From: a phage
DNA: 64,000 nucleotides
NCBI GenBank assembly: GCA_024683775.1
Contig: GCA_024683775.1_4106.1
Reading direction: 5' to 3' (one strand)
Part shown: positions 1 through 64,000 of the stretch, piece by piece
Layout: the number at the start of each line of letters is the position of its first letter
How positions within the stretch are numbered: the first letter of the stretch is position 1
Notes under the pieces: model-generated
What the model was told of the DNA's origin: nothing
What the model saw: the letters and a program-made list of their open reading frames with translations, nothing else
Database searches by the model: none
Position numbers and translations under genes: made by a program

Positions 1-585
1 GAGTTGGAAGAAGTTACCAAAGCACAAGATGCTGAATTGGTAGCAATGCAAGCGAACCCTGACGTTGATTCTTTTGCAATCCAGGAGCAAAAGATGATTT
101 GTGAAGCTCTTTCTAAACAGGAAGATAAGATTCGTCGTCTTATCATGATGTGTGAACTGAGCGGTCCTCGCCTGATGAGTATGAAGAAAGTAAACCTCAA
201 CACTGTTTCTAAGTTTGAGGATTTGAAATCAGTTGTTATTCCAGCATGGAAATCACAATTGGCTGAACAGTTGATTTCCGAACGTCAACGTAAAGACAAT
301 GAGTTGGGTAATCTGATTGACAATGAAACTAACCGTTTACTCGAAGTAAACTCTAAAATGGTAGCAACTAACATGTTGGATGCTGCTAAGGCAAATAATC
401 GTGGTATCGTGGATATTAAAACATTGCGTAATGTACACAAAACAATGATCGATAGCATCGAAGCAGTACTGATTGAAGAGAAGAAAGGTAAAGAAGAGCG
501 TGAGCGAGCTAAGATTGAAATCGCAAAACTCTCTCATGAACTTGAAGATACTCTTCGTGAAATTGCTGAAAAAGCTAACAAGTAA
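1..585 (+). CDS. TelA-like (toxic anion resistance family) protein, C-terminal part; 5' end lies outside the window
   Basis: Frame is open from base 1 with no start codon. The C-terminal 'NRGIVDIKTLRNVH...IEEKKGKEERERAKIEIAKL' resembles the conserved GIVDIxTL segment and coiled-coil tail of TelA/KlaA proteins. Confidence 0.55.
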   Translation, partial: ELEEVTKAQDAELVAMQANPDVDSFAIQEQKMICEALSKQEDKIRRLIMMCELSGPRLMSMKKVNLNTVSKFEDLKSVVIPAWKSQLAEQLISERQRKDNELGNLIDNETNRLLEVNSKMVATNMLDAAKANNRGIVDIKTLRNVHKTMIDSIEAVLIEEKKGKEERERAKIEIAKLSHELEDTLREIAEKANK

Positions 586-588
586 TAG

Positions 589-617
589 TTGACACAAGAG
601 TGCGTTTTCGATATAAT
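589..617 (+). promoter_or_regulatory. sigma70-type promoter (TTGACA, 17 bp spacer, TATAAT) lying inside the loop of a terminator hairpin
   Basis: TTGACA at 589-594 and TATAAT at 612-617. The hairpin arms at 597-607 and 628-639 bracket the -10 element. Confidence 0.6.
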
Positions 618-643
618 GTTCTTATTGAAACGCACTCTTTTTT
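597..643 (+). terminator. intrinsic terminator with a long loop
   Basis: AAGAGTGCGTTT pairs with AAACGCACTCTT and is followed by a T-run, directly after the TelA-like stop codon. Confidence 0.6.
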
Positions 644-666
644 AATATACAGATAAGGAACGAAAT

Positions 667-1356
667 ATGAAACGCCGTCATGTTAGTGTTGATATTGAAG
701 CTCTCGGTACTCCTGAAAACTCTGGTTATGATATTATTATTCCAAATTATGCAGCAGTAGTTGTTCCAAGTAAACCTGAACATGATATCAGACAATTTGT
801 ATATGTTAAGTTACCATACCAAGCACAAGTCAACGCTGGGCTGAAATCAGATGCAGGTGCAATGGATTTCTGGATGAATACATGTCAGAAGGAATATCCT
901 AATGCATATGCTGAAGTTGCCAGTACTATGGCACTAGTTGCACCAGAATTGTACGGTCCTAATGGTAAATCCAAACAAATCTTTACTTCTAATGGTATTG
1001 TCGATTTCTGGAAAGATATCCGTTTTGATTGTTATGGTAAAGAGGTTGAACATTCAATTTGGGGAAATGGCTGCAACTTCGACTGTAGTATTTTACAAGC
1101 TAATCACTTAAAACTATTGAATGTTGGTGATTTGTGGAAATATGATGCTCCTGAAAACGCACGAACCCTGAAGCGTTTATTGAATGAAGAAGCTCGCACC
1201 GAAATGGATGAGATTGTGTCAGTGCAGTTAGCTAAATTCGTGAAGTATGTAGAAAAATGTGGTATTAATGGTTTGGAATTACATCACCCTCTGTATGATG
1301 CAGCACGTGAAGCTATCCAAATCTCCTATTGTCTCAATAAACTTAAACTGGACTAA
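667..1356 (+). CDS. DEDDh-type 3'-5' exonuclease-like protein
   Basis: N-terminal 'VSVDIEALGT' (D-x-E Exo I motif) and C-terminal 'HHPLYDAAREA' (H-x4-D Exo III motif). AAGGAA RBS lies upstream. Confidence 0.55.
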   Translation: MKRRHVSVDIEALGTPENSGYDIIIPNYAAVVVPSKPEHDIRQFVYVKLPYQAQVNAGLKSDAGAMDFWMNTCQKEYPNAYAEVASTMALVAPELYGPNGKSKQIFTSNGIVDFWKDIRFDCYGKEVEHSIWGNGCNFDCSILQANHLKLLNVGDLWKYDAPENARTLKRLLNEEARTEMDEIVSVQLAKFVKYVEKCGINGLELHHPLYDAAREAIQISYCLNKLKLD

Positions 1357-1359
1357 TAC

Positions 1360-2454
1360 ATGAATTTTATTATTCTGTTGATTCCTTCACTTATCGTTGT
1401 ATTTGTTATGAAATACATGTATGATAAGCACATCAGTACTAAAGAACTGTTGATTCATATTGGTTGTTGTATAGTTGGTGCTGCTCTTGTGCTTGGTATC
1501 TCATATGCAATCAACTACAGTCAATTGTACGATGTAGAGATTCTAAATGGGCAGGTAACATCCAAATATAATCACAAGGAGTTTTGTACACAATCAAGCT
1601 CATGTAAGCATTACACGTGGCACGAGAAATGCAGAACTCGTTATGATAGTAAGGGGAAATCCCATCGTGAATGTGAGTCCTATAAGGTATTTGATTATAC
1701 ATACGAAGTTGACTGGTATGTAAAAAGTACTGTAGGGAAGTTTGAGATTGAGCGAGTAAACCGTCAGGGTACAATGACCCCTCCACGCTGGCAACAGGTT
1801 AACATTGGGGATTATGCTGCCGCAGAAAGTTCTTATATTAACTATCTGTTCGCTGATAAAAACTCATTGTTCAGTCCTGATGAATTACATGAAATGTATG
1901 ATGAGAAATATCTTAGTACTTTACCAGAATACCCAAGTGTGGTAGACTATTATAAAACACACCATGTAATCAACACTACTAATTATAATGTAGATGGTTA
2001 TGATGAGTATCTGCGTGAAGAACTAAAAACTATGGGTGCACGTAAACAAGTCAACATCCAAGTTTTGGTTTATGATTATAAAAACGTAGATTTTGTTGAG
2101 GCAACACTCGCTTCGTGGCGTGGTGGTAAGAAGAATGATGTTATTATGTTCTTTGGAATTGATAATGATGGGAAGATTGTTAAATTTGATAGCACTTCCT
2201 TTGCACAAGGCATGAAGAACGAAGAACTACATGCTAAGATGCGAATGGATGCATTAAATGAAAAATTAACTCTTGACTTGTTGAGCAAAGAAGTGCATAA
2301 TATTGACACAAAGTTTGAAAGACTCTCTAATAAAGAGTTCGAGTACTTGTCTGTAAAAATGGAACCACGTAAAGATGTTCTCATCGGTGCTTCTATTTTA
2401 TTACTGATTGTATCTATTTTCATTGGCCTTTATATGAGGGATAACAAGTTATGA
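1360..2454 (+). CDS. membrane protein with N-terminal and C-terminal TM helices
   Basis: 364 aa ORF. Hydrophobic N-terminus 'FIILLIPSLIVVFVM' plus a second helix, and C-terminal 'VLIGASILLLIVSIFIGLYM'. The middle part is Cys-rich. Confidence 0.55.
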   Translation: MNFIILLIPSLIVVFVMKYMYDKHISTKELLIHIGCCIVGAALVLGISYAINYSQLYDVEILNGQVTSKYNHKEFCTQSSSCKHYTWHEKCRTRYDSKGKSHRECESYKVFDYTYEVDWYVKSTVGKFEIERVNRQGTMTPPRWQQVNIGDYAAAESSYINYLFADKNSLFSPDELHEMYDEKYLSTLPEYPSVVDYYKTHHVINTTNYNVDGYDEYLREELKTMGARKQVNIQVLVYDYKNVDFVEATLASWRGGKKNDVIMFFGIDNDGKIVKFDSTSFAQGMKNEELHAKMRMDALNEKLTLDLLSKEVHNIDTKFERLSNKEFEYLSVKMEPRKDVLIGASILLLIVSIFIGLYMRDNKL

Positions 2455-3005
2455 ATGGTAAAATTATTGCATTGATTGGTGTTGTTGTTGTATTCGGTCT
2501 TATGGCAATTGGTTCAGTTAGTATGTATGTAGATGCACATGACCGTGCTGTTGAATTTGAAGGTAATATTAAAAAGTACTATGATGCATCAGAAAGTCAA
2601 CTAAGTAAATACACTCTTGTCATTCAAGAAAAAGTACAAGTTTCTGATAAGTATAAGGATGCATTGAAAGAAACCATCGAAACATACTTTAAAGGTCGTG
2701 AAGGTGTTGACCAGAAGTTTGTGATGTCACAGATTCAACAACAGGTTCCTAATCTCGATCCTAAGATTTATCAAGAACTTATGGTAACTATCGAGTCAGG
2801 ACGTACACAGTTCAACAATCTTCAGAAAATGAAAATTGACCAGTGTACTGATTATGCTAAGTTCCGTAAAGGTTTCTGGAACTCCAAAATTCTTGATACT
2901 AACACATTCCCAAGTGAAAATATTGAACATTTATGTACAGTAGTTTCTGATACACGCACTAAGAAAGCAATGGATACTGGTATCCAAGAAGTAATTAAAC
3001 TATAA
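2451..3005 (+). CDS. LemA-like single-pass membrane protein (tentative)
   Basis: N-terminal TM 'IIALIGVVVVFGLMAIGSV'. About 185 aa. 'VPNLDPKIYQELMVTIESGRTQFNNLQ...YAKF' resembles the LemA YPxLK...L...ENxIxxxRxxYN pattern. Start overlaps the upstream stop (ATGA). Confidence 0.4.
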   Translation: MNGKIIALIGVVVVFGLMAIGSVSMYVDAHDRAVEFEGNIKKYYDASESQLSKYTLVIQEKVQVSDKYKDALKETIETYFKGREGVDQKFVMSQIQQQVPNLDPKIYQELMVTIESGRTQFNNLQKMKIDQCTDYAKFRKGFWNSKILDTNTFPSENIEHLCTVVSDTRTKKAMDTGIQEVIKL

Positions 3006-3014
3006 TCTAAATTT

Positions 3015-3040
3015 GGGAGTACATTGTACTCCCATTTTCT
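3015..3040 (+). terminator. intrinsic terminator
   Basis: GGGAGTAC pairs with GTACTCCC, followed by ATTTTCT. Confidence 0.6.
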
Positions 3041-3052
3041 ATAGGATTTATT

Positions 3053-3640
3053 ATGTTTTTAAAAAATACTTATGAATTAATTAAAATGCTTCAAAATATG
3101 AATTCCGGTGGTCTATTCCCGTATCACTCTGAGGATAAAACTCATCGTTTAGTTTTGAAATTGGATGAAACTGGGCGTATTGCATCACTAAGAACGGCTG
3201 TTCCAAATATAGATCAAGTAATTATGCCAACAACTCCGAATTCAGGAACTGCTGTTAATACACCACAAACATATAACTCAAACTACCAACACCCACAGAT
3301 GTATACGATTAGTACTCCATCTATTACAAGAGTTGCTTGTATTGTTAATATAAAAGTATCAAAAGACTATCGTGATTTAATATCAGTTGAATGGTCAGAA
3401 CTAACATCAGCATTTGCAAACAATGGGCTTGTTGTAACAAATGCTGGTATAGCAGTCAATGCAAAAGAAGGACAACAGATAATGAGTGCGTTGTATCTTA
3501 GCAATGGTTATGTTATCATTAATGGGAAGTTGTATTGTAACACCGAACCAGAAGCACTCACTGAAGATTTGATTAGTGAAAAAGAATATAGTCTTCTTGA
3601 AATTATGAATTTAAAAAAGGTATATGAAAACTGTGATTAG
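3053..3640 (+). CDS. hypothetical protein
   Basis: 195 aa ORF in the co-directional gene train; no recognisable motif. Confidence 0.5.
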   Translation: MFLKNTYELIKMLQNMNSGGLFPYHSEDKTHRLVLKLDETGRIASLRTAVPNIDQVIMPTTPNSGTAVNTPQTYNSNYQHPQMYTISTPSITRVACIVNIKVSKDYRDLISVEWSELTSAFANNGLVVTNAGIAVNAKEGQQIMSALYLSNGYVIINGKLYCNTEPEALTEDLISEKEYSLLEIMNLKKVYENCD

Positions 3641-4205
3641 ATTTGATCAAGACGATTTGCCATTTATCCAAGAACTAGAAGAACTAGTTACGGTAACGAT
3701 GCAAGAAATTAGTTCATGGGATATAACAGTTTTTAGGAACGTATATGATAAAATCACAAACTTTAAAACTGTTAATATTGAGGTAAAACACAATAACTTT
3801 TACTTAACAAAAGAATTCATTCTAAAAAGACCAGGAACGATCCAACCGAAACGTAGTTTGTCTTTTGCTCAAGTTCTCGGTGCTAAGACAAGGGATGATG
3901 ATTTGAATGAATCAATATATTCGTATATTAAAGAGCGTTCTCCTGATGTTAAGAAGAGATATTACCTTTGTGTTACATTTGATGAACAAGGAAAACTAAA
4001 TGCGTATTCTATAAATTCATCAGCACACGTCCCATTACATTCAACGTCAATTGGTGATAAACAATTACTAATCGATTCATCAACATGGCATAATAGGGAA
4101 AATTTTGCCACTGAAACTTTTCAGTACTCGGTATCTGAACCAAAGTCTCCATTTGATTTTGTGTTTGTTAATAACATCCTTTTACGTTTTGGTGTAGGAG
4201 TCTAA
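3624..4205 (+). CDS. hypothetical protein, possibly a divergent acidic-FQxS family member
   Basis: 193 aa ORF. C-terminal 'FATETFQYSVSEP' weakly resembles the family motif. Confidence 0.5.
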   Translation: MKTVIRFDQDDLPFIQELEELVTVTMQEISSWDITVFRNVYDKITNFKTVNIEVKHNNFYLTKEFILKRPGTIQPKRSLSFAQVLGAKTRDDDLNESIYSYIKERSPDVKKRYYLCVTFDEQGKLNAYSINSSAHVPLHSTSIGDKQLLIDSSTWHNRENFATETFQYSVSEPKSPFDFVFVNNILLRFGVGV

Positions 4206-4207
4206 AT

Positions 4208-4561: not shown

Positions 4562-4563
4562 TT

Positions 4564-5695: not shown

Positions 5696-5704
5696 TAAAA
5701 AAAT

Positions 5705-11049: not shown

Positions 11050-11910
11050 ATGAAACCTATCAGAGTACTGTCACTTTTTAATGGAATGAGCGTTGGATAT
11101 ATGGCATTGGCAGATGCAGGTATTCCAGTTGAAAAATATTACTCATCTGAAATTGACAAGTACGCAATTGCTGAATCTTCCGAGAATTTTCCTGATATTA
11201 TCCAGTTAGGTGATGTGACTAAGTGGAAAGAATGGGATATTGAGTGGGATAAGATAGATTTACTCATGGGAGGATTCCCATGTCAAGCCTGGTCTGTTGC
11301 TGGTAAGCAAGGTGGCTTGAATGATATACGTGGACAGTTATTTTTGGTTATGGTTGATATTTTTGAGCACATCAAAAGTGTAAATCCAAACTTGCAATTT
11401 CTGTTCGAGAATGTTAAAATGAAGGAAGATTTCAAAGAATACATTAATAGTATTTTAGGAATCACACCAGTACTGATAAATTCCCAGCATTATACGCCTC
11501 ACTTCAGGCAGAGATACTACTGGTGCAGTACTGATAAGCTTTTTATACCACCTGCATTATCAAATGCCCCTAAACTTCAAGATATCATTGAAGATGGTTG
11601 GTATACTGACAGAACCGCTTCGTACTGTATAGATGCTAACTATTTTAAGGGTGGTGATTGTAACCAGTACTTTAATAAATCAAGACGACAGTTGGTGTTT
11701 CGTGACCCAACGATTAATCGTCAATATCTATTGGAGAATGGTAAAAGAAATATTGACTATAGACACTTAAGTGTAGTAGAATGTTGTAAATTACAGGGTA
11801 TTCCTGTAGATTTCTTTAAAGTGTCTAGTAAGACACAAGCATACAAAATGCTTGGGAATGGATGGACTATGCCAGTTATATCACACTTACTAAGAGAGAT
11901 ATTCTTTTGA
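11050..11910 (+). CDS. C5 cytosine-specific DNA methyltransferase (orphan; no nuclease partner seen)
   Basis: Motif I 'VLSLFNGMSVG', motif IV 'GGFPCQAWSVAG', motif VI 'FLFENVKMK', motif VIII-like 'QRYYW' and motif X 'GNGWTMPV'. Confidence 0.85.
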   Translation: MKPIRVLSLFNGMSVGYMALADAGIPVEKYYSSEIDKYAIAESSENFPDIIQLGDVTKWKEWDIEWDKIDLLMGGFPCQAWSVAGKQGGLNDIRGQLFLVMVDIFEHIKSVNPNLQFLFENVKMKEDFKEYINSILGITPVLINSQHYTPHFRQRYYWCSTDKLFIPPALSNAPKLQDIIEDGWYTDRTASYCIDANYFKGGDCNQYFNKSRRQLVFRDPTINRQYLLENGKRNIDYRHLSVVECCKLQGIPVDFFKVSSKTQAYKMLGNGWTMPVISHLLREIFF

Positions 11911-18579: not shown

Positions 18580-18608
18580 ATACCCAGTCTAGTACTGGGT
18601 ATTTTTTT
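18580..18608 (+). terminator. intrinsic terminator
   Basis: ATACCCAGT-CTAGT-ACTGGGTAT hairpin followed by TTTTTT. The hairpin includes an AGTACT. Confidence 0.7.
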
Positions 18609-21622: not shown

Positions 21623-21738
<116 letters not shown>

Positions 21739-21845: not shown

Positions 21846-22006
<161 letters not shown>

Positions 22007-22010
<4 letters not shown>

Positions 22011-22167
22011 CACATGAAGAATGGATGAATGACATTAATTTTAGATATTCGGGTATCGGTAAATGGCTAAAGTATCATTGGGAATTCATTTCAGAGCCAC
22101 ATCTGTATGATAAACTTATCAACGATCCAGCATATGAAATGTACTTAATTGAACTACTGGTACGAAT

Positions 22168-22171
<4 letters not shown>
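22007..22171 (+). CDS. 54-aa 'MTHEEW' family protein, tandem copy 2
   Basis: ATGA overlap upstream. Nearly identical to copy 1 over the first 19 codons. Confidence 0.5.
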
Positions 22172-22763
<592 letters not shown>

Positions 22764-22767
<4 letters not shown>

Positions 22768-22792
22768 CTAAATAGTTCAGTACTGATATAAT
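22764..22792 (+). promoter_or_regulatory. sigma70-type promoter, copy B of the repeated promoter
   Basis: TTGACT at 22764-22769, 17 bp spacer, TATAAT at 22787-22792. Confidence 0.6.
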
Positions 22793-24123: not shown

Positions 24124-24258
<135 letters not shown>

Positions 24259-24356: not shown

Positions 24357-24429
24357 GACTCTGTAGTTCAGTTGGTAGAACGCTTCACTCATAATGAAGA
24401 AGTCGCTGGTTCAATCCCAGTACTGACCA
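24357..24429 (+). tRNA. tRNA-like (CAT anticodon) with a non-complementary acceptor stem; possible pseudogene
   Basis: Canonical D-arm GTTC-AGTTGGTA-GAAC, anticodon arm CTTCA-CTCATAA-TGAAG and T-arm GCTGG-TTCAATC-CCAGT. The 5' GACTCTG cannot pair with the 3' ACTGACC. Confidence 0.35.
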
Positions 24430-24438
24430 CAAAAAAAA

Positions 24439-26136
<1,698 letters not shown>

Positions 26137-26584: not shown

Positions 26585-26668
26585 TGGTAGTTAGCATATC
26601 GGCCTTATGCAACGGACTGTTAATCCGTGTCAGAAATGACAAGACTGGTTCGACTCCAGTACTACCAG
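26585..26668 (+). tRNA. tRNA-Asn (GTT) carrying an extra variable-arm hairpin
   Basis: Acceptor TGGTAGT/ACTACCA. D-arm GCAT...ATGC. Anticodon arm ACGGA-CTGTTAA-TCCGT. 15-nt variable region with a GTCA-GAAA-TGAC hairpin. T-arm ACTGG-TTCGACT-CCAGT. Confidence 0.7.
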
Positions 26669-26733
26669 CAAAACAATCATGAACCTCGGAACAATAAATA
26701 ATATCATACAGGATATTATGAGGTCTAAGGTTC

Positions 26734-27276
26734 ATGGGACGAAAACAATCAGAAGAAACACGTAAAAAAATAGCTGAATCATTAAAGGCTAAAAGTTCTA
26801 AATTACCAGAGAATGAAATAATTCAAAAATATTTAAATGGTATGCCAATTTACGGTTTAGCCAAAGAATATAAGTGTAATAGATCAAGAATAAATGATAT
26901 CGTTGAATCACATGGTGTTAAACGACCAAAATCAACCAATGAAATGCGATTTTGTGAAATACACAATAAGAATTATGAATTAAATTCACAAGGTAAATGG
27001 AAATGTTTAAAATGTGACAGTCAACGTGTTTCTGATAGACGTAGAAAATTAAAAATACTAGCCGTTGAATACAAAGGCGGTTGTTGTGAAAAGTGTGGAT
27101 ATGATAAATGCATTGCCGCATTAGAATTCCATCATGTTGATCCTTCACAGAAAGATTATTCAATTAGTCAAGAAGGTGCAACTCGTTCTTTTGAAAAAAT
27201 TAAAATAGAACTGGATAAATGTATTATGGTTTGTGCAAATTGTCATCGTGAGATTCATGATGATGAACGACAATAA
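26734..27276 (+). CDS. HNH endonuclease with a NUMOD3-like N-terminal DNA-binding motif
   Basis: 'GRKQSEETRKKIAESLK', 'CEKCGYDKCIAALEFHHVDPSQKD' and 'CANCHREIH'. Confidence 0.8.
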   Translation: MGRKQSEETRKKIAESLKAKSSKLPENEIIQKYLNGMPIYGLAKEYKCNRSRINDIVESHGVKRPKSTNEMRFCEIHNKNYELNSQGKWKCLKCDSQRVSDRRRKLKILAVEYKGGCCEKCGYDKCIAALEFHHVDPSQKDYSISQEGATRSFEKIKIELDKCIMVCANCHREIHDDERQ

Positions 27277-40145: not shown

Positions 40146-41111
40146 GTGAAAAAGCTTGATTTAAATGCAATTTCTGAAGAAGTACTGGATGAGTGTTTTG
40201 CTAGTGAAGAAGTCAACGTATTAGAGGCTCTTGATTCCGTCGAAGAAGAAGAACATGACGGTCACAAGTTTGAGAAACCAAAAACAGGTATCAGCTTAAC
40301 TCGCCCTAAAGGGATAACGAATGAAATGCTCATCCAAGCAGTGCGTGATGGTATTGACGTTGAAAAGAACATTGACCTTTTGGTTCGCTACAACTATCCA
40401 ATGGTAGTAAGTGTTGCACGTAAGTGTACATGTTTTATCCCATTTGAAGATAAGATTTCTTATGGTGTTGAAGGTTTAATGCGAGCAATTCATACGTTCG
40501 ACACTACCAAAAATGTTAAGTTCATTACATATGCAACAACAACTGTGTACATGACAATCTATAACGAAAGTGCAGATGCTAATTATCTAGTGCATTTCCC
40601 ACGTTATATGAGTGTTAATAACATTTATGTGAAACGTTGTGTAGAAGAGTATCAAAGGAAACATGGTAAATACCCAACTCCTGAGATGGTGTCAAAAGAG
40701 ACTGGTATTGAGATTCAACACGTTAAGAATTGTCTAACTTACAGTAACACTTATGTAGCATTGAATATGAAAATGAGTAATGATTCAGAAAGTACATTAT
40801 CTGACATTGTTACTTCAGTTGAACCTGATTACAACTTAGGCGTAGAAACTGTCAGTACCCCACTGGTACAAAGTATTGCAGAAATGATGAGTAACCTATC
40901 TGCCAAAGACCGTGAATTGATTGAACGTGTACATGGTATTGGTTCTTATTCTGAACCCGAAACGCTACGAGAAATCATTGAGAGTGGTTTTGAAGATGAG
41001 AAGGGTAAGGTCATGACTGCTCGTTCTTCATTGCACCGTAAGTACTCTGAAGCAATGGAACGACTGCGTAAGATGGTTAAGACAAAAGGTTATGAGTTCG
41101 AAGATTTTTAA
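40146..41111 (+). CDS. sigma-70 family RNA polymerase sigma factor
   Basis: GTG start after a GGAGAAG RBS. Region 2-like 'LVRYNYPMVVSVARK...GVEGLMRAIHTFD...KFITYATTTVYMTIYNE'. Region 4-like 'LSAKDRELIERVHGI...ETLREI...ARSSLHRKYSEAMERLRK'. Confidence 0.75.
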   Translation: MKKLDLNAISEEVLDECFASEEVNVLEALDSVEEEEHDGHKFEKPKTGISLTRPKGITNEMLIQAVRDGIDVEKNIDLLVRYNYPMVVSVARKCTCFIPFEDKISYGVEGLMRAIHTFDTTKNVKFITYATTTVYMTIYNESADANYLVHFPRYMSVNNIYVKRCVEEYQRKHGKYPTPEMVSKETGIEIQHVKNCLTYSNTYVALNMKMSNDSESTLSDIVTSVEPDYNLGVETVSTPLVQSIAEMMSNLSAKDRELIERVHGIGSYSEPETLREIIESGFEDEKGKVMTARSSLHRKYSEAMERLRKMVKTKGYEFEDF

Positions 41112-42209: not shown

Positions 42210-43004
42210 ATGAGCACTATAGATGAATTGATTCGCCGGAATTCAAAATACTACGACCCATCAGAAATTGTCGGCAACATTACTAAATCTGAGTTCGGCC
42301 CAAATACTCGAAAACTCATTCATGTAATGTCACGTGATGGCTTTAAATGTGATTGTTGTGGTGAATCCAATGTGGTATTCACTTTACATAAGCACAGTAC
42401 TAAAGACCGTTATAAATTCAGACCTTATGTACTTAAAGGGAAACGCCTTGTACGCATGACGTTAGACCATAATGTACTGGACTGTCTTCAGGGCGGTAAT
42501 GATAAAGAGAACATGACCGCATTGTGTGAGGATTGTAACGCATTACGCCAGCATAAGTTTGCTGAGTACAGTGAGTTTAAGCACTGGTATCATAACGCTG
42601 ATCGTTCTATCGAGCCTGACGTTAACTACTGCTTCATTGAGTATATTAAGAATGCTAAAGATACGTACATTCTTAAATCAATGTCACCTATTACAGTGTT
42701 CCCTGAGAATCTATTCAGTACTATGCAGCGTGATTTTAAACGTGGTATCATTAATGCATTCAAACATTTAGACAAAGGTATCAAGCACTTTGAGGTGCAA
42801 TGCTTAAATGAAGGAATGAATCGTTTAGTACAAATTTACATGAAATCATTTATAGGTGTTGACACCGCACGTCTACCAGTATATAATTACTTTATTGAAA
42901 GCGAAGAAGGTGAATCACTTCGTGATTATGGTGAAAGATTTAATAATAAAGTTTTCACTGCAATCGCAAACGAGATTCATTACTATAAACCATATGTAAT
43001 TTAA
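42210..43004 (+). CDS. HNH endonuclease
   Basis: 'CDCCGES...TLDHNVLDCLQGGNDKENMTALCEDCNALR' matches the C-x2-C ... D-H ... N ... C-x2-C pattern. Confidence 0.7.
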   Translation: MSTIDELIRRNSKYYDPSEIVGNITKSEFGPNTRKLIHVMSRDGFKCDCCGESNVVFTLHKHSTKDRYKFRPYVLKGKRLVRMTLDHNVLDCLQGGNDKENMTALCEDCNALRQHKFAEYSEFKHWYHNADRSIEPDVNYCFIEYIKNAKDTYILKSMSPITVFPENLFSTMQRDFKRGIINAFKHLDKGIKHFEVQCLNEGMNRLVQIYMKSFIGVDTARLPVYNYFIESEEGESLRDYGERFNNKVFTAIANEIHYYKPYVI

Positions 43005-43507: not shown

Positions 43508-43535
43508 TTGACATAAGATATCAGTACTGTATAAT
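43508..43535 (+). promoter_or_regulatory. sigma70-type promoter followed by a long leader hairpin
   Basis: TTGACA at 43508-43513 and TATAAT at 43530-43535. The leader has GCAGTGA...TCACTGC and then a T-run. Confidence 0.55.
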
Positions 43536-47253: not shown

Positions 47254-47486
47254 TATTGAGTTTTGTAGTTGCATTATTGTTTATGTTCTACCCTACACTA
47301 GTAGCAGTAGCCACTAAACGAAAGCTGGTGGATATCACTACTGTATTCTTGCTAAACGTGGCACTCGTTCTAGTGTCTATTATCATTCCCGTGAGCTTTA
47401 CGGTTATTGATATGGCATCTGTATTACTATTCGTCTTCAGTTATCTTATGCTTATTGAAGAAAAACCTGTTGACAAACGTTTGTAG
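47244..47486 (+). CDS. small membrane protein (3 TM)
   Basis: Hydrophobic throughout. A promoter (TTGACA at 47470) is embedded in its 3' end. Confidence 0.55.
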   Translation: MYLVLSFVVALLFMFYPTLVAVATKRKLVDITTVFLLNVALVLVSIIIPVSFTVIDMASVLLFVFSYLMLIEEKPVDKRL

Positions 47487-47497
47487 TACTGTATAAT
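47470..47497 (+). promoter_or_regulatory. sigma70-type promoter
   Basis: TTGACA at 47470-47475, 16 bp spacer, TATAAT at 47492-47497. AGTACTG occupies the spacer. Confidence 0.55.
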
Positions 47498-53617: not shown

Positions 53618-53649
53618 AGGGTTGACTTCGGTCAACCTTTATATATAAT
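53618..53649 (+). promoter_or_regulatory. terminator/promoter cassette copy 4
   Basis: AGGGTTGAC-TTCG-GTCAACCTTT hairpin. TTGACT at 53622-53627, 16 bp spacer, TATAAT at 53644-53649. Confidence 0.65.
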
Positions 53650-53662
53650 GGAAGAAATAAAC

Positions 53663-54190
53663 ATGGAACGTTGGAAATTAATTCCTGATTATGACTATTC
53701 AATTTCTGATCATGGAAGAGTAAGAAACGAACAAACTGGATATATAAGTTGTGGATTTAAAAATAAAGATGGGTATGTGAAGGTCGATTTGTATCGCAAT
53801 TCTGTGAAAAATAGAAAGGCGATTCATCGACTAGTAGCTGAAGCATTTTTACCACCACCCACACAGAAACAGTTACAGTGGGCAAGTAGAACAAAGAAAA
53901 AAGTTGTTCACATAAACCATAAAGATTGTAATAGAAGTAACAATCACTATTTGAATTTGGAATGGAACACAGCATCTGAAAACGTACTATATTCTTATTC
54001 ACATGGTAACGCAACAACTAATCGTGGTGCTGCTGTGTTGACATGGGAAATTGTAAGAGAAATAAGAAAAGATTATAATGATAATTATAATGATGTGATA
54101 GAATATGCACGAGAAAATTGTAATAAATACCGTGTATGTAAAAAAACAATACGTCGTATTTTATACAATCAAACATGGATAGAGGATTAA
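53663..54190 (+). CDS. HNH-type homing endonuclease (NUMOD4-like plus HNH_3-like)
   Basis: 'MERWKLIPDYDYSISDHGRVRN', 'IHRLVAEAFLPPP' and 'INHKDCNRSNNHYLNLEW'. The track start at 53648 overlaps the -10 element. Confidence 0.7.
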   Translation: MERWKLIPDYDYSISDHGRVRNEQTGYISCGFKNKDGYVKVDLYRNSVKNRKAIHRLVAEAFLPPPTQKQLQWASRTKKKVVHINHKDCNRSNNHYLNLEWNTASENVLYSYSHGNATTNRGAAVLTWEIVREIRKDYNDNYNDVIEYARENCNKYRVCKKTIRRILYNQTWIED

Positions 54191-58184: not shown

Positions 58185-58193
58185 GGGATTGCT

Positions 58194-58831: not shown

Positions 58832-58832
58832 G

Positions 58833-58860
58833 TTGACAAACTCATTCAGTACTGTATAAT
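58833..58860 (+). promoter_or_regulatory. sigma70-type promoter followed by a leader hairpin
   Basis: TTGACA at 58833-58838 and TATAAT at 58855-58860. Leader hairpin GGGGATGA-ACTTC-TCATCCCC at 58870-58890. Confidence 0.6.
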
Positions 58861-58907
58861 GTTTATCAAGGGGATGAACTTCTCATCCCCACAATCGAGG
58901 AATTGTC

Positions 58908-59462: not shown

Positions 59463-59473
59463 GGATAACTTAT

Positions 59474-59650: not shown

Positions 59651-59678
59651 TTGTCACGTTAATTAAGTGAGGCGATAA

Positions 59679-59930: not shown

Positions 59931-59939
59931 TTAAAAAAT

Positions 59940-60311: not shown

Positions 60312-60312
60312 T

Positions 60313-60600
60313 ATGTACGCACTGTATAATAAAGAAAAGAAACAATTTGCTAAGGTTGAAAAATCGATTGATACATTTGGCATGTTTAAGTACTGTATTG
60401 TGACGGACCCATATGCTAACTTGTATTACGTTCTTGATGACGTATCAGTACTGCAACGATTGCTTGAACGTTCCAAAAGCCAATGCCAAGGTATCCATGA
60501 TGGTTCAACTTATGAAACACCTGAGTGTTCCTATGGCTATCTGGATGGGTATGAGATTGTGAAGTTGGGTGCATTGTTGAATAAATGGATTAAACAATGA
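60313..60600 (+). CDS. hypothetical protein
   Basis: ATG at 60313 directly after the upstream stop. Confidence 0.5.
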   Translation: MYALYNKEKKQFAKVEKSIDTFGMFKYCIVTDPYANLYYVLDDVSVLQRLLERSKSQCQGIHDGSTYETPECSYGYLDGYEIVKLGALLNKWIKQ

Positions 60601-61010
60601 AGAAGTGTATCACGTGTAATATTGAAAAAGACATTAGTGAATTTGGTATAAGAAGTGATACTGGGAAACATAGAAATACATGCAAAGGTTGTAGTAATAT
60701 TACCAGTAAGAGAACCAGAAATAAAAAAACTGATGTAAAAACACTTGAAGAAATCAAAAGAAAAAATAAAGATTTCATGACCAGAGTTAAATCATTTTAT
60801 GGTTGTAGTGTTTGTATGATGAAGTATCCAGAATGTTTAGACTTTCACCATCTTGACCCTAATACCAAAGAACATACACCAAGTTCTATGTTCAGTAAAA
60901 GTCGAGAATCTATCAAAGATGAAATTCGAAAGTGTATGATTCTTTGTTCTAATCACCATCGCATGGTACATTCTGGTAGACTATGTTTGATTGAAAGAAA
61001 AAAGGGTTGA
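60597..61010 (+). CDS. HNH endonuclease
   Basis: 'CSVCMMKYPECLDFHHLDPNTKEH' and 'CSNHHRMVHSG'. The stop TGA lies inside the cassette TTGACT. Confidence 0.8.
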   Translation: MKKCITCNIEKDISEFGIRSDTGKHRNTCKGCSNITSKRTRNKKTDVKTLEEIKRKNKDFMTRVKSFYGCSVCMMKYPECLDFHHLDPNTKEHTPSSMFSKSRESIKDEIRKCMILCSNHHRMVHSGRLCLIERKKG

Positions 61011-61036
61011 CTTCGGTCAGCCCTTTTTGCTATAAT
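61004..61036 (+). promoter_or_regulatory. terminator/promoter cassette copy 7
   Basis: GGGTTGAC-TTCG-GTCAGCCC hairpin plus T-run. TTGACT at 61007-61012, 18 bp spacer, TATAAT at 61031-61036. Confidence 0.7.
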
Positions 61037-61064
61037 CATTTCATCGAAACGAGAGGATGAATAC

Positions 61065-61580
61065 ATGACACGCATTAACTTAGTACACGTTAAAGAACTT
61101 GCTGACCAACATCTGATGGCTGAATATCGTGAACTCCCACGTGTGTTTGGTGCTGTACAAAAACATGTTCAAGCACGTAAGCGAGTCCGTGATTTCAAAA
61201 TTAACAGTACTTACCTGTTAGGTTCAGGTCATGTAACATTCTTCTACAACAAGTTATTGTACTTACAGAAGCGTCATATTGATATTGTTAACGAATGTTT
61301 GCGTCGTGGGATGAAGATTCAAAACACTGAAGTAAACGACATTAGCGGATTCCCTACTGAGTTTTGTAATGACTACGTACCATCGGAGTCAGAGATTAAA
61401 ATGTCTCGTGAGCGTTTGATTGAGAAGCTACAGATGAAGCCTACGTGGTATAAGTTTACTGATGTTGAACGCCCACAGTACGTTAAAGATATGCAGGACG
61501 TAAGTAGTAATATAGAATCTAGTACTGATATGTTCGACGAAATTGAAGAACAAATCAAAGATGAAATGAATAATTATTAA
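61065..61580 (+). CDS. denV: pyrimidine-dimer DNA glycosylase / AP lyase (T4 endonuclease V homologue) with an acidic C-terminal extension
   Basis: The N-terminus '[31 protein letters not shown]' is nearly identical to T4 EndoV and keeps Thr2 and Glu23. Also has '[10 protein letters not shown]', 'ECLRRGM' and 'PTWYKF'. Confidence 0.9.
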
Positions 61581-61586
61581 AGGTAA

Positions 61587-61619
61587 GGGTTGACTTCGGT
61601 CAGCCCTTTTTGCTATAAT
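61587..61619 (+). promoter_or_regulatory. terminator/promoter cassette copy 8
   Basis: GGGTTGAC-TTCG-GTCAGCCC hairpin plus T-run. TTGACT at 61590-61595, 18 bp spacer, TATAAT at 61614-61619. Leader ATTTCATCAACTGATGAGG. Confidence 0.7.
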
Positions 61620-61647
61620 TATTTCATCAACTGATGAGGATAACGAA

Positions 61648-62418
61648 ATGACCAGAGAAGCCCGTAGCATTCAAATCCAGAAAAACTTCAACTCCATGAT
61701 GGTTGCTCTTGAGTGTTTGCTCGATGATAGCAGTACTGTAAAAAGTATGGTTGTCAGCGGTGCACCTGGTGTTGGTAAGACTTACACCCTGTCACAACGC
61801 CTCCAGAAAGCTCATGACGCAGCAGAATGGAACGTAGCTACTATCAGTGGTAAGATGACTACTCTTGCTCTGTATGAAGTTCTGTACAAGAATCGTCACA
61901 GCACCAACGTATTAGTACTGGATGATATGGACAGCATCTTTGATTCAGAAGACGGTATGAACCTGCTCAAAGCAGTACTGGACAGCGGTAAACGTACTGT
62001 GTCTTACATGACTAGCTCTAAGTACTTAACTACCAACGGTATCCCTAACAGCTTTGATTTTAACGGTCGTATCGTATTCATTACTAACAAAGATTTGGCA
62101 CTGAATGCTAAAGCTAAAACCAAAATGTCTGCTCACTATGCTGCTCTTATGTCTCGCTCTGTGTATGTTGACTTACAGATCCAGACTAAAAGCGATATCA
62201 TGATTCACATTGAAAACGTAATGAACAAGACCAACATCCTGTCAACTAAAGGTGTTAATAGTAATGGTAGCAAAGCAATCCTGAATTGGATGCTGAAACA
62301 TGAAGATGCACTTCGTGCTCCTTCACTGCGTATGCCTCTGTTGATTTCAGCAGTATACAACAACAACCCGTATGATTGGGAAGAGCAGTGCGAAAACTTG
62401 TTCCTTGAGAAAATTTAA
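61648..62418 (+). CDS. P-loop (AAA-like) ATPase
   Basis: Walker A 'SGAPGVGKTYTL' and Walker B 'VLVLDDMD'. Confidence 0.7.
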   Translation: MTREARSIQIQKNFNSMMVALECLLDDSSTVKSMVVSGAPGVGKTYTLSQRLQKAHDAAEWNVATISGKMTTLALYEVLYKNRHSTNVLVLDDMDSIFDSEDGMNLLKAVLDSGKRTVSYMTSSKYLTTNGIPNSFDFNGRIVFITNKDLALNAKAKTKMSAHYAALMSRSVYVDLQIQTKSDIMIHIENVMNKTNILSTKGVNSNGSKAILNWMLKHEDALRAPSLRMPLLISAVYNNNPYDWEEQCENLFLEKI

Positions 62419-62485
62419 TTACATGTATTGACAGTACTACCATAGTGTAGTACTATAACTTAATATTCACCACCGGAGATACGAT

Positions 62486-62824
62486 ATGCTTGAGTTTTTT
62501 AATTCAGATACAATGCTTAGTATTACTTTGATTTATCTGTTTGGTTTTTTCTTTTATCATGCACTAGTTGTAGTACTATGGTATTTTAAAAAGAAAATCG
62601 TTTTCAAACTGTATCCTGATGGAAACATTTCACTACTTCTTTTCACTATTATCCAAGGTATGTTTGCAATTGTTGGTCTTATCGCACACTTAATTTATTG
62701 TGCTAATCCACAGTTGAACTCAATATCACAATATATTGTATTCCTTGGATTACTAATTTGGGTGCTGATATACTTGTTTAATCTCATCATTAATGGTAGA
62801 GCAAAAATTCGTGGGGACTTCTAA
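62486..62824 (+). CDS. small 3-4 TM membrane protein family, array 2 copy 1
   Basis: Hydrophobic helices; C-terminus 'NGRAKIRGDF'. Confidence 0.6.
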   Translation: MLEFFNSDTMLSITLIYLFGFFFYHALVVVLWYFKKKIVFKLYPDGNISLLLFTIIQGMFAIVGLIAHLIYCANPQLNSISQYIVFLGLLIWVLIYLFNLIINGRAKIRGDF

Positions 62825-63171
62825 TGTTTGAATCTTATCTTGAGTTTTTAAAGAGTAGTTCTGTTGCACATTCAATTGCAGGGATTATTCTAACAGGTTA
62901 TGTAACATTTTGGGTAGTTATGTTTCTAGGATGGTATTTTAAACGACAATTCTATAAGCGTAATGGTGAAGATTTTATGAATTCTTTCATTAATCAATCG
63001 TTGTTTGCATCAACATTGATAGCATGTATTGTAGCAACACTCACAGGAAAGGTACTGCCAGCATTCTCCGCAGTTTACGGTACATTGGGTATGATATGTG
63101 TAGTTTTTTACTTGACCATTAAACTTTGTTGTGTTATGATTGAACTTCGAAACAAGATACCGGAGGAATGA
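62824..63171 (+). CDS. small 3-4 TM membrane protein family, array 2 copy 2
   Basis: C-terminus 'MIELRNKIPEE'. TAATG overlap upstream. Confidence 0.6.
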   Translation: MFESYLEFLKSSSVAHSIAGIILTGYVTFWVVMFLGWYFKRQFYKRNGEDFMNSFINQSLFASTLIACIVATLTGKVLPAFSAVYGTLGMICVVFYLTIKLCCVMIELRNKIPEE

Positions 63172-63506
63172 TGGAATATTTTTTACACTTACTGCCGTGG
63201 TATATGAAAGTTAGTACTATGTACTATATTCTTAGTGCTGGATTCTACTTTCTGATGTGGTTCTTCAAACGACCAATTTCAGTATTCATCTCTGATAACA
63301 TGCTGCAATTAAAATTACACGCATGGTTTGGTATGGCGATGTTCATGCCTATTATTCACTACTCAATGATTAGTAGAGGGTTCCGTTCCAATGGTGAACC
63401 AATTATATTAGTATTCTATTGGGGTTCAACTATTGCATATGTAAGTTTGTTGTTGTTCCCAGTCGTTCATAAATTACGTGCTAAAGTTCCTGATGCGAGG
63501 TACTAA
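63168..63506 (+). CDS. small 3-4 TM membrane protein family, array 2 copy 3
   Basis: C-terminus 'HKLRAKVPDARY'. ATGA overlap upstream. Confidence 0.6.
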   Translation: MMEYFLHLLPWYMKVSTMYYILSAGFYFLMWFFKRPISVFISDNMLQLKLHAWFGMAMFMPIIHYSMISRGFRSNGEPIILVFYWGSTIAYVSLLLFPVVHKLRAKVPDARY

Positions 63507-63820
63507 TGGATATCGTAACATTGATTTACACGCTTTATTCATTCTATTTTATTATGTGTTGGGTTGGATTTTTATTTGTATTGAAGATGTTTGATTATGT
63601 TGAAAAACAGATAAAAGAATTTTGTATTCCTTTTATTGGGTCAACCATAATTAGTATTACTTGTTTGTATTATTTGGTATGTGATCCACCTGTTAATACA
63701 GCAATGATTGACTTCATGTTATTACCAACAACTGTTATTTTTTTATGTAGTCTGATGCCACCGATTAGTCGTGGGCTAACCGAATTTAGACGCAATCAAA
63801 AGCGTAAACGAGGGATGTGA
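63506..63820 (+). CDS. small 3-4 TM membrane protein family, array 2 copy 4
   Basis: C-terminus 'LTEFRRNQKRKRGM'. TAATG overlap upstream. Confidence 0.55.
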   Translation: MDIVTLIYTLYSFYFIMCWVGFLFVLKMFDYVEKQIKEFCIPFIGSTIISITCLYYLVCDPPVNTAMIDFMLLPTTVIFLCSLMPPISRGLTEFRRNQKRKRGM

Positions 63821-64000
63821 TGGAAATTGCACTTATTATATTAACTGCTATGTTGTTTATTAGTACAATTGTTATTATTGGCAAGTTCTTCTGTGTATCC
63901 TTCTTGGAAACCGTATACGATGAAATTGCTGATGACTATGAATTACATGCAGGATTTTTTACTACGTATTGGATTAGTTTATTACTACTTATCACTGTAT
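63820..64000 (+). CDS. small membrane protein, array 2 copy 5; 3' end lies outside the window
   Basis: The ATG overlaps the upstream TGA. Begins 'MEIALIILTAMLFISTIVIIGKFF...'. No stop codon within the window. Confidence 0.5.
   Translation, partial: MEIALIILTAMLFISTIVIIGKFFCVSFLETVYDEIADDYELHAGFFTTYWISLLLLITV

Follow-up and report, generated by a model that had tools for sequence, protein, structure and literature searches.

The palindrome AGTACT occurs 171 times, or once per 374 bp, in the 64,000-nucleotide stretch of phage DNA analysed here (GenBank assembly GCA_024683775.1, contig GCA_024683775.1_4106.1; hereafter the window), where base composition predicts 21.6 copies, a 7.9-fold excess. 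An earlier note on this DNA, made from the letters alone, had estimated 165-170 copies against 20-30 expected at a G+C content of about one-third; the exact G+C content is 34.55%. The same word, with the same preferred flanking bases and a complete absence of the tetramer GCGC, was found in related jumbo phages and in a second lineage of temperate siphoviruses. Taken with its outer bases, (C)AGTACT(G) is probably a selected recognition site that is read by a dimeric reader.

By megablast, the window is an early-type region of the Asteriusvirus (PBECO4/121Q type) group of jumbo coliphages (~350 kb). It is 97-99% identical to EC.P1, fEgEco12, WPEC3, Turkey3, CMSTMSU and TH47, and ~84% identical to PBECO4, 121Q, slurp01, phAPEC6 and Sharanji. 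It holds ~144 small genes, 138 of them on the plus strand, and seven tRNAs; the genes are greedy calls based on open reading frames (ORFs), made for this analysis rather than taken from an annotation, and 6.8 kb of DNA lies outside them. Few of the proteins were recognised by Pfam, among them a C5 DNA methyltransferase, a sigma-70-like factor, HNH/NUMOD4 endonucleases, a TelA fragment and a pyrimidine-dimer glycosylase. TH47 (352,450 bp, 97% identical to the window) was examined as a whole genome, and the other genomes were sampled as pieces of 12-50 kb.

Excess, anatomy and conservation of the word

The three most over-represented of all 4096 hexamers in the window are CAGTAC (10.2-fold), GTACTG (9.5-fold) and AGTACT itself, and the octamer CAGTACTG occurs 41 times against 0.6 expected. 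Markov models of order 1, 2 and 3 predict 18.6, 35.9 and 64.9 copies of AGTACT, and 200 simulations of the third-order model gave 65.9 ± 8.1 (z = 12.9 for the observed number). The excess also survives null models that respect the coding sequence, the refuting condition set in the earlier note. Coding DNA carries 152 copies, compared with 39.9 ± 5.5 when synonymous codons are shuffled with each protein and the per-gene codon usage kept (z = 20.5), 22.3 ± 5.0 when codon order is shuffled (z = 26), and 116.8 ± 4.6 under a very constrained synonymous shuffle that preserves dinucleotides (z = 7.6). The spacing between sites is near Poisson in the window (coefficient of variation, CV, 0.88) and heterogeneous over the whole TH47 genome (CV 1.29). 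The copies in the window start at the following positions:

465, 922, 1435, 1726, 1915, 2342, 2575, 3311, 4123, 4258, 4298, 5367, 5709, 5834, 6459, 6481, 7205, 7555, 8190, 8383, 8746, 9008, 9042, 10252, 10279, 10763, 10897, 11064, 11469, 11527, 11666, 12138, 12717, 13304, 13325, 13787, 14243, 14320, 14484, 16052, 16117, 16954, 17334, 17630, 18361, 18591, 19455, 19581
20037, 20116, 20697, 21149, 21643, 22285, 22305, 22358, 22684, 22724, 22779, 23519, 23539, 23716, 24113, 24140, 24419, 24661, 26360, 26455, 26658, 27372, 28211, 28447, 28626, 29187, 29563, 30130, 31291, 31751, 32110, 32140, 32257, 33023, 33132, 33425, 33786, 33909, 34665, 34828, 35511, 35857, 36030, 36203, 36217, 36338, 36591, 37466, 38499, 38685, 38849, 39139, 39329, 39820
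40181, 41041, 41198, 41451, 42172, 42396, 42717, 43115, 43177, 43523, 43749, 43954, 44123, 44783, 44885, 44922, 44977, 44998, 45586, 45739, 46933, 47085, 47177, 47485, 47691, 47703, 48434, 48905, 49407, 49642, 50384, 50733, 50739, 50755, 52330, 53071, 53342, 53492, 54375, 54711, 55811, 56040, 56736, 57036, 57350, 57568, 57634, 58104, 58371, 58848, 59238, 59266, 59324, 59625, 59847
60076, 60225, 60389, 60447, 61206, 61521, 61732, 61914, 61974, 62021, 62433, 62449, 62572, 63213

All three coding registers are used. In plus-strand genes 67 copies are read as AGT-ACT, 29 as nAG-TAC-Tnn and 51 as nnA-GTA-CTn; five more lie in minus-strand genes and 19 in intergenic DNA or at gene edges, with equal densities inside genes (2.66 per kb) and between them (2.78 per kb). 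The word overrides codon choice: AGT-ACT spells 69 of the 134 Ser-Thr dipeptides (17.9 expected from codon usage), and tyrosine is written TAC in 82% of the places where the flanks permit AGTACT, compared with 29% in ordinary contexts. Ser-Thr is also more frequent than the 78 expected (Thr-Ser occurs 75 times), which indicates that AGTACT shapes protein sequence too. With its presence in all frames and in non-coding DNA, the override of codons and the mirror-symmetric flanks described next, the proposal of the earlier note that AGTACT is a DNA-level signal and not a peptide motif is supported.

The flanks were analysed for 995 sites pooled from the window and seven relatives. At position -1, C is enriched 2.41-fold and G reduced to 0.50-fold, and at position +6 G is enriched 2.37-fold and C reduced to 0.49-fold. 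The two flank profiles are mirror-symmetric (r = 0.87), the C/G preference holds in every frame and in non-coding DNA, and no information was found beyond ±1. The unit is an 8-bp dyad, (C)AGTACT(G), with the half-site (C)AGTAC. GTAC alone is enriched 2.4-fold and variants that keep GTAC and differ at an outer position 1.0-2.7-fold (TGTACT and AGTACA ~2-2.7-fold), with inner variants at background. Half-sites are positively associated, as 68% of the CAGTAC copies in the window are followed by T, compared with 48% of other GTAC.

Sites are conserved beyond the DNA around them. In 121Q (84.7% identity, 41 kb), 90 of 123 aligned sites (73%) are kept, versus 47% of codon-phase-matched control hexamers, and in JNE01 (80.8% identity) 63% are kept, versus 36-37% of coding-phase controls. 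Per-base identity is 0.89-0.96 at the six core positions, where 0.84-0.87 is expected, and at expectation in the flanks, a footprint confined to the hexamer itself. Within sites TAC keeps its synonymous third base in 20 of 20 cases, compared with 132 of 196 elsewhere (P = 0.001). Site conservation above background is the argument by which Xu et al. inferred selection on the iterated palindrome HIP1 (PMC5861425). In our sequence comparisons it supports the maintenance of AGTACT by selection, as suggested in the earlier note, or by an equivalent site-preserving bias.

That the excess has no function, and follows passively from mutation bias, from codon or dipeptide usage, or from purged neighbours such as GGTACC and CGTACG, is largely refuted, and we consider it very improbable. 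Lower-order words do explain part of it (a maximal-order Markov model predicts 141 of the 171 copies), and the lack of GGTACC and CGTACG pushes some GTAC contexts to A/T flanks. This explanation is contradicted by the protein-preserving shuffles (40 versus 152), the six-base footprint and the surplus of Ser-Thr. It is also contradicted by the distribution of the word, which shows no excess in the host or in T4, PHB05, ICP1 and PA5oct, recurs with the same flanks in an unrelated lineage, and is excluded from an island that keeps a variant of it.

AGTACT and GCGC in jumbo phages and a second lineage

The word persists across genus-level divergence in a large clade of Enterobacterales jumbo myoviruses, with one copy every ~370-380 bp genome-wide. 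The excess is common to the RaK2-, GAP32/CBB-, Kaldavass- and Serratia-BF-type jumbo phages, and it is not a general property of AT-rich genomes: T4, PHB05, ICP1 and PA5oct do not have it. Copies of AGTACT were as follows, the first seven genomes being samples of 40-50 kb:

121Q: 139 observed, 16 expected
JNE01: 129 observed, 16 expected
RaK2: 114 observed, 17 expected
GAP32: 114 observed, 17 expected
CBB: 112 observed, 17 expected
Erwinia phage Kaldavass: 122 observed, 13 expected
Xanthomonas phage XbC2: 94 observed, 13 expected
Serratia phage BF, fragment: 54 in 12 kb
T4: 12 observed, 16.7 expected
PHB05: 0 observed, 11.9 expected
ICP1: 1 observed, 6.9 expected
PA5oct, a more distant relative: 1 observed, 13.3 expected (GCGC, 35)
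E. coli K-12: 11 observed, 12.6 expected (GCGC, 357 in 50 kb)

In every AGTACT-rich jumbo sample (121Q, JNE01, RaK2, GAP32, CBB, Kaldavass, XbC2 and BF) GCGC is absent, with 32-56 copies expected. The window likewise has none, versus 56 expected by composition and 27.8 ± 4.6 under the synonymous shuffle. The whole TH47 genome contains 917 AGTACT (119 expected), 203 CAGTACTG (3.6 expected) and 2503 GTAC (1132 expected), and no GCGC (329 expected), the only one of the 256 tetranucleotides that is missing. CAGTAC and GTACTG exceed AGTACT in enrichment in TH47 as in the window. An origin of the GTAC excess in double deamination of GCGC was rejected, as the intermediates GTGC and GCAC are only at 1.2-1.4-fold and the GTAC excess (+280) is far larger than the GCGC deficit (-56).

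The enrichment runs opposite to the palindrome avoidance usual in phages, as the earlier note had remarked. In the window 28 of the 64 six-base palindromes are absent, and 24-30 of 64 are absent across the clade samples, mostly GC-rich ones. The loss indicates strong restriction-site avoidance and suggests DNA that is mostly unmodified. AGTACT is the single large exception to this very strong avoidance. The palindromes with no copy in the window include CTGCAG, CAGCTG, GTCGAC, CTCGAG, GAGCTC, GCATGC, CCATGG, CGATCG, GGTACC and CGTACG, and GATC and CTAG are at half their expectation. Per kilobase, host DNA has ~0.2 AGTACT and 7 GCGC and phage DNA ~2.7 AGTACT and 0 GCGC; the two counts together separate host and phage DNA almost perfectly.

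Scans of IMG/VR for closely spaced AGTACT returned, among the matches listed, many contigs of 31-35 kb and 40-44% G+C that are not jumbo phages. They belong to a second lineage, temperate siphoviruses of ~33 kb with a large serine integrase, a tape-measure protein, a lambda-type tail tube, a J-type tail fibre and a protease-capsid fusion, whose genome was reconstructed from overlapping fragments of different contigs. Among the matches listed, the family comprises ~30 IMG/VR loci (for example L023, L065, L121 and L125), its early genes mostly have no assigned function, and its contigs had no nucleotide match in the GenBank phage collection. A pool of 40 kb contained 163 AGTACT (13-fold), with C enriched 2.9-fold at -1 and G 2.7-fold at +6, and no GCGC; in coding DNA 121 sites were counted versus 29 ± 4.7 under a synonymous shuffle, and no GCGC versus 45 ± 6. 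Divergent members, with 24-50% protein identity, all keep both features.

Through its integrase, the element was found integrated in two Leclercia genomes (loci L133 and L134, 10001-21785 in each). The Leclercia flank has 57-61% G+C, ~20 GCGC per 2 kb and almost no AGTACT, and the switch falls exactly at the integrase gene, inward of which the DNA has ~40% G+C, 5-12 AGTACT per 2 kb and no GCGC. The G+C content of the siphoviruses lies ~15 points below that of their Leclercia host. Among the IMG/VR matches listed, fragments of at least 5 kb comprised 59 that are both AGTACT-rich and GCGC-free, 9 that are only rich, 3 that are only GCGC-free and 106 that are neither; the few siphovirus-type fragments in the 'rich only' class may include host flank. 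The degree to which each palindrome is over- or under-represented agrees between the two lineages, with r = 0.94 among tetramers and r = 0.70 among hexamers when AGTACT is left out. Both lineages infect the same host order, and chance is an unlikely source of the same word, flanks and partner feature in the two. A supposed third lineage (L017, a 60-kb contig) was discarded, its GTAC excess coming with collagen-like repeats.

One segment of the jumbo phage genomes departs from this pattern. In TH47, an island of 8.4 kb (71,775-80,217) with ~13 small co-oriented genes without assigned function has no AGTACT at all, and GTAC is enriched 3.5-fold. Its top strand carries 48 TGTACT, which reads (C)AGTACA on the sense strand, and one AGTACA; the TGTACT copies lie in unrelated contexts and in all three codon phases (18/16/14). 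In EC.P1, 32 of 38 aligned copies are identical to those of TH47. PBECO4, a different species, has a 7-kb island (fragment L239, 7001-14000) with 0 AGTACT, 41 TGTACT and 0 AGTACA, and its borders are sharp, the adjoining DNA carrying 4-8 AGTACT per kb. Across the three islands the one-sided variant is present in 39-48 copies, compared with 0-1 in the reverse orientation; the presence of the same sites in EC.P1 and PBECO4 led us to reject a sequencing artefact in TH47. No second such island was found elsewhere in TH47. The palindrome is actively excluded from the island and one oriented half-site is kept, which identifies the half-site as (C)AGTAC, and the strand polarity implies that some process treats the two strands differently in this segment. 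Among 10 island proteins scanned with Pfam and PHROG, none resembled a DNA-binding or restriction protein. The homologous stretch of fEgEco12 lies at 31-38 kb of its record; the termini of this phage were confirmed by PhageTerm and by digestion, with a 21-kb terminal repeat (PMC13070987), and we infer that the island lies just past that repeat.

TH47 also has a hot region, at ~88,000-110,000, with 155 AGTACT in 22 kb (7 per kb, 22-fold). Its ORFs look fragmented in the TH47 record, which is labelled 'UNVERIFIED', and high-density fragments of RaK2, CBB and others (L041, L151, L020) may correspond to it.

The island is one ground for supposing that the functional unit is not the palindrome, but a polar single-strand signal (a primase start or a strand-specific nick) with the oriented form (C)AGTAC / GTACT(G), the palindrome serving both strands at once. 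In all three islands the variant stands on one strand and in three codon phases, and the greater enrichment of CAGTAC and GTACTG over AGTACT agrees with such a unit. The DnaG primase of E. coli prefers the template CTG, with which GTACTG ends, and late transcription of the T4 type uses strand-specific nicks. However, known primase sites are trinucleotides and are not enriched in the manner of AGTACT, two nicks at one palindrome would give a double-strand break, and the positive association of the halves outside the island favours recognition of the full dyad. We regard the polar signal as improbable.

A signal in RNA (AGUACU, for instance as an endoribonuclease cleavage site) would fit genes that are nearly all co-oriented, so that the sites are in mRNA, and an island variant that is strictly on the sense strand. 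Mirror-symmetric flanks have no rationale in RNA, and the word is equally dense in non-coding DNA and occurs in promoters and tRNA genes. Equally slight in our estimation, and very improbable, is a decoy for the division inhibitor SlmA, a protein of the same host group whose palindromic consensus GTGAGTACTCAC has AGTACT at its centre (PMC3020112); no other host protein is known to have a site centred on AGTACT. In each half of an SlmA site, positions 1-2 must be G and T, position 3 a purine, and positions 4-5 A and G (Tonthat et al., PMC3020112). These required flanks are absent from the phage word, which has no GT at positions 1-2 and prefers C at position 3 (2.4-fold), G being the least favoured base beside the core (0.5-fold). 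SlmA sites were rejected on these flanks, and only one GTNAGNNCTNAC occurs in the window.

Promoters, RNA genes and mobile genes

Several sites lie in spacers of early promoters. The copies at 22358, 43523, 47485 and 58848, which the earlier note had placed there, were verified, and those at 22779 and 24140 were added:

22343..22370, plus strand: sigma-70-type early promoter TTGACT-N9-AGTACT-G-TATAAT, AGTACT abutting the -10; kept in 121Q (fragment L001, 9036)
22764..22792, plus strand: sigma-70-type promoter TTGACT-N9-AGTACT-GA-TATAAT, with extended -10 TGn; kept in 121Q (L001, 9515)
24125..24153, plus strand: sigma-70-type promoter TGAACT-N9-AGTACT-GA-TATAAT, before the tRNA cluster; kept in 121Q (L001, 10274) and JNE01 (fragment L002, 8022)
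43508..43535, plus strand: sigma-70-type promoter TTGACA-N9-AGTACT-G-TATAAT; kept in 121Q (L001, 27464), where the remaining spacer differs
47470..47497, plus strand: sigma-70-type promoter TTGACA-N10-AGTACT-G-TATAAT; kept in 121Q (L001, 31774)
58833..58860, plus strand: sigma-70-type promoter TTGACA-N9-AGTACT-G-TATAAT; kept in 121Q (L001, 42359) and JNE01 (L002, 41743), with the spacer diverged

All six hold AGTACT at one fixed register to the -10, and the class is conserved across three Asteriusviruses. The sites could belong to a global architectural or transcription factor that coats the phage chromosome and times or shuts early promoters, with no part in telling self from non-self. The fixed register and the retention of the word in 121Q and JNE01 despite spacer divergence fit this proposal, as do the dyad symmetry and an enrichment graded like a position weight matrix, and a role in nucleoid structure has been put forward for HIP1 (PMC5861425). 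AGTACT is, however, not mainly a fixed-position promoter element, since 152 of the 171 copies (>85%) are intragenic, with Poisson-like spacing, and most promoter-like matches in the window lack it (only ~6 of some 40-60 sigma-70-like matches carry it). The proposal also leaves the absence of GCGC and the recurrence in an unrelated temperate phage unexplained, and a contiguous site of 8 bp is short for a helix-turn-helix repressor. We judge it unlikely, though worth keeping in view. LexA boxes formed by two motifs 18 bp apart were rejected, as the short distances between sites do not include that spacing.

A second promoter type, TTGACTTCGGTCAGCCC(T)nTATAAT, has six copies in the window (49249, 52843, 53622, 56383, 61007 and 61590) with a near-identical GC-rich spacer, TTCGGTCARCC, and several of them adjoin HNH or other inserted genes. 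A sigma-70-family factor with regions 2 and 3, annotated in relatives as an RNA polymerase sigma factor, is encoded at 40146-41111, in the middle of the early region. At 21846-22329 three tandem ORFs of 162 nt (~53 aa) stand back to back, and the equivalent in 121Q is three annotated coding sequences of 165 nt.

The sites that the earlier note had seen in a terminator loop and in two tRNA genes are also real, and a further one precedes a tRNA gene:

18582..18608, plus strand: terminator-like hairpin ACCCAGT/ACTGGGT followed by a T run; AGTACT at 18591-18596 spans the loop and 3' arm
21649-21738: tRNA-Ser, preceded by AGTACT at 21643-21648
24164..24255, plus strand: tRNA-Ser with anticodon ACU, which pairs with the AGU codon; annotated as tRNA-Ser(act) in 121Q
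24358..24430, plus strand: tRNA-Met, with AGTACT at 24419-24424 in its 3' part
26585-26669: tRNA-Asn, with AGTACT at 26658-26663 in its 3' part

AGT is the commonest serine codon (396 of 1291), and 69 of those occurrences lie in AGT-ACT. Its usage is in part inflated by the motif, and the tRNA-Ser(ACU) may be linked to AGTACT. A search of the window with Rfam returned the seven tRNAs only, and the 'non-coding RNA-like regions' of the earlier note were not confirmed.

AGTACT had further been described as rare in mobile or foreign genes. Four genes bear this out, with one site together versus 8.5 expected (Poisson P = 0.002):

24439..26136, minus strand: site-poor gene, one AGTACT (24661) in 1.7 kb
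26734-27276: site-free gene
53648-54190: site-free gene (HNH_3 and NUMOD4)
60597-61010: site-free gene

The HNH gene at 42210-43004, by contrast, holds two sites, a normal count in a gene of mobile type, and the depletion is only a tendency.

Candidate readers and the possible function of the word

The one enzyme that had been named as a possible partner of AGTACT is the following:

11050..11910, plus strand: C5 cytosine DNA methyltransferase, 286 aa (Pfam PF00145, E = 4.7e-37)

The enzyme is short, and its best solved relatives are the catalytic domains of DNMT3A/3B (full-length alignment, E ~1e-23). As a reader of AGTACT it appears to be a poor candidate. PHB05 has a homologue that is 50% identical, yet no AGTACT; ICP1, with a 44% identical homologue, has a single copy; and in TH47 the gene (175,441-177,327) is interrupted by an insertion of ~1 kb in a genome full of sites. 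Bisulfite data in the RaK2 paper showed methylated CpG, a dinucleotide that AGTACT does not contain, and no homologue was detected in the siphovirus loci, nor any methyltransferase in Pfam and PHROG scans of the siphovirus ORFs examined.

These observations bear on a broader explanation, in which AGTACT or GTAC is the target of a methyltransferase, as in the HIP1 system, and methyl-dependent or site-biased mismatch repair creates or preserves sites, or methylation gives strand discrimination or protection. The word has the size and strict palindromy usual for Type II targets, jumbo phages do encode methyltransferases, and the one-base deviations fall at outer positions, a pattern that Elhai described for HIP1 (PMC4390886). 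With 917 ScaI-type sites a phage would have to be protected, and the avoidance of AGTACT in PHB05 (0 of 12 expected) and PA5oct (1 of 13) suggests that AGTACT-cutting enzymes exist in hosts. The island would then be permanently 'hemimethylated' on one strand, a possible meaning of its polarity. The siphoviruses and the poor candidacy of the C5 enzyme speak against it, and T4- and ICP1-type Dam queries had no match in TH47. The deamination neighbours AGTATT (0.94-fold) and AATACT (0.76-fold) are not clearly depleted in the window; for a repair drive of the very-short-patch (VSP) type from the C5 enzyme, which belongs to this explanation, they are weak evidence either way. C>T differences rise just slightly at NCG and are not informative as a sign of CpG methylation. 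The DNA of fEgEco12 was cut as predicted by ten enzymes, including ClaI, NruI and SmaI, with ScaI not among them (PMC13070987). No AGTACT methylome or ScaI digest of these phages was found in the literature searched. Methylation seems to us an unlikely explanation, on a par with the architectural factor.

Proteins shared by the two lineages were sought with tblastn (E < 1e-3), comparing the 144 window proteins with IMG/VR loci that bear the trait, and siphovirus ORFs with ~560 kb of jumbo fragments and the whole of TH47. The only ones found were an HNH-AP2 endonuclease, a T5orf172-type endonuclease and a lysozyme domain, so that a common phage-encoded reader is not visible at the sensitivity of BLAST. 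The HNH-AP2 endonuclease was rejected as a shared reader, as its family is present in 1493 phage records, most of them without the AGTACT/GCGC trait, and a siphovirus protein of 465 aa was rejected for want of a jumbo homologue. Pfam and PHROG scans of the 144 window ORFs and of the siphovirus early region turned up nothing that looked like a DNA-binding or restriction protein. The shared mobile endonucleases point to genetic contact between the two lineages, meeting in the same cells. The regions of TH47 that hold them are at 146.6, 344.4, 42.9, 251.2 and 263.7 kb. In divergent siphoviruses the HNH-AP2 endonuclease adjoins the integrase (L121, 2392-3012; L125, 1-666), and the T5orf172/phrog_681-type endonuclease is present in one Leclercia prophage (L134, 20807-21667) and not in the other.

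The closest known parallel is HIP1 (GCGATCGC) of cyanobacteria, an 8-bp palindrome with a 6-bp core that recurs roughly once in each gene, in every frame and also in intergenic DNA, overrides codons (PMC4390886, PMC5861425), is conserved beyond background, has its one-base variants at the outermost positions, and whose function is still open after long study. As with HIP1, AGTACT lies far above expectation genome-wide, in coding and non-coding DNA, and its sites are conserved above their surroundings. The enrichment is 8-13-fold for the hexamer and ~56-fold for the octamer, compared with 15-300-fold for HIP1. HIP1, however, belongs to cellular chromosomes, whereas AGTACT is found in phage genomes whose host has no enrichment; AGTACT is AT-rich, is paired with a total loss of GCGC and has an island of an oriented half-variant. 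HIP1 is also reported to come with a methyltransferase specific for the word or its core (Elhai 2015, PMC4390886), and for AGTACT none was identified, nor found in the siphovirus parts examined. HIP1 sites further show a long-range periodicity of 10-90 kb (Xu et al. 2018, PMC5861425); for AGTACT the spacing analysis covered short range.

Like the DNA uptake sequences (DUS) of Neisseria and the uptake signal sequences (USS) of Pasteurellaceae, AGTACT is a short word present about once per kb or more densely, in all frames, that bends protein sequence, as do those protein-read marks of 'own' DNA. DUS and USS are 9-12 nt long, non-palindromic and read by the competence machinery, unlike AGTACT, whose carrier is a virus with, as far as its sequence shows, no uptake system. 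Chi and the FtsK-orienting polar sequences (KOPS) are likewise over-represented words that alter the processing of 'self' DNA, and the island shares their strict polarity (48:1); outside it AGTACT is palindromic, non-polar and mirror-symmetric in its flanks, and we know of no helicase-nuclease that reads it. Phages are known to accumulate host Chi, and Chi (GCTGGTGG) is itself enriched here, with 3 copies on the plus and 0 on the minus strand of the window versus ~0.26 expected (hand calculation) and 23 copies in TH47 (6 plus 17) versus ~1 expected per orientation. In every clade member CTGGTG and CACCAG rank with the most enriched hexamers. AGTACT is also the hexamer of ScaI, with the size and symmetry of a Type II target, but restriction targets are normally depleted in phages (as in PHB05 and PA5oct) and AGTACT is here enriched 8-13-fold. 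M.ScaI is an N4-cytosine enzyme, unlike the C5 enzyme of the window. No highly iterated word described for phage genomes was found in the literature searched, nor anything relevant on AGTACT, CAGTACTG or ScaI in connection with these phages.

The reading that we prefer is that a small protein of two-fold symmetry, encoded by phage or host, would read (C)AGTACT(G), a site of the size used by Type II enzymes, with graded affinity: the GTAC core strict, A/T beside it preferred and C/G outside preferred. The most economical function that uses both the excess of AGTACT and the absence of GCGC is a label that distinguishes phage from host DNA, and such a self-label is our leading, if tentative, suggestion for what the word does. 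Its many copies would act additively as a distributed mark of phage DNA; the reader may protect, load onto or organise that DNA, as a GCGC-directed activity (host restriction or a phage nuclease) hits other DNA. The same reader could control early transcription through the -10 and spacer of the six-promoter class. The binding, nicking or packaging roles raised in the earlier note may also apply. A stronger form, which is rather speculative and which we hold to be doubtful, is a two-word code of self and non-self. DNA bearing GCGC (the host chromosome, competing phages) would be destroyed and AGTACT-rich DNA protected, replicated or packaged; the Leclercia siphoviruses would have adopted the code to survive in or exploit jumbo-infected cells, or both lineages would answer one host system, and the island would be a segment that the reader handles differently.

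Several observations weigh against the preferred reading of a selected site and self-label. No reader protein was found in the tblastn, Pfam and PHROG searches, at BLAST-level sensitivity, the proteins common to the two lineages are the two endonucleases and the lysozyme domain alone, and we know of no host protein that binds CAGTACTG. Density varies along the genome, from the hot region to the empty island, with near-Poisson spacing in the window, and a label needs no such variation. The two lineages amount to only two independent evolutionary observations, not 59. Ordinary restriction avoidance, taken to its extreme, may account for the absence of GCGC, since 24-30 of 64 palindromes are missing as well, and the 'two-word code' may then be coincidental, a result of shared ecology. 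That sites are better conserved than their surroundings is compatible with site-preserving biased repair as well as with selection.

In practical terms, ScaI should cut these jumbo phages, which are therapeutic candidates, into ~900 pieces, and cutters of GCGC, HhaI for example, should leave them intact; the AGTACT/GCGC signature offers a simple marker for related phage DNA in metagenomes. Highly iterated words (HIP1, DUS/USS, Chi) have been described in cellular genomes, and a phage is small and easily engineered, so that the function of the word is directly testable, which to our knowledge has not been achieved for HIP1 in over 20 years. If the word does mark phage DNA as self, it would represent a new principle of virus-host discrimination without base modification.

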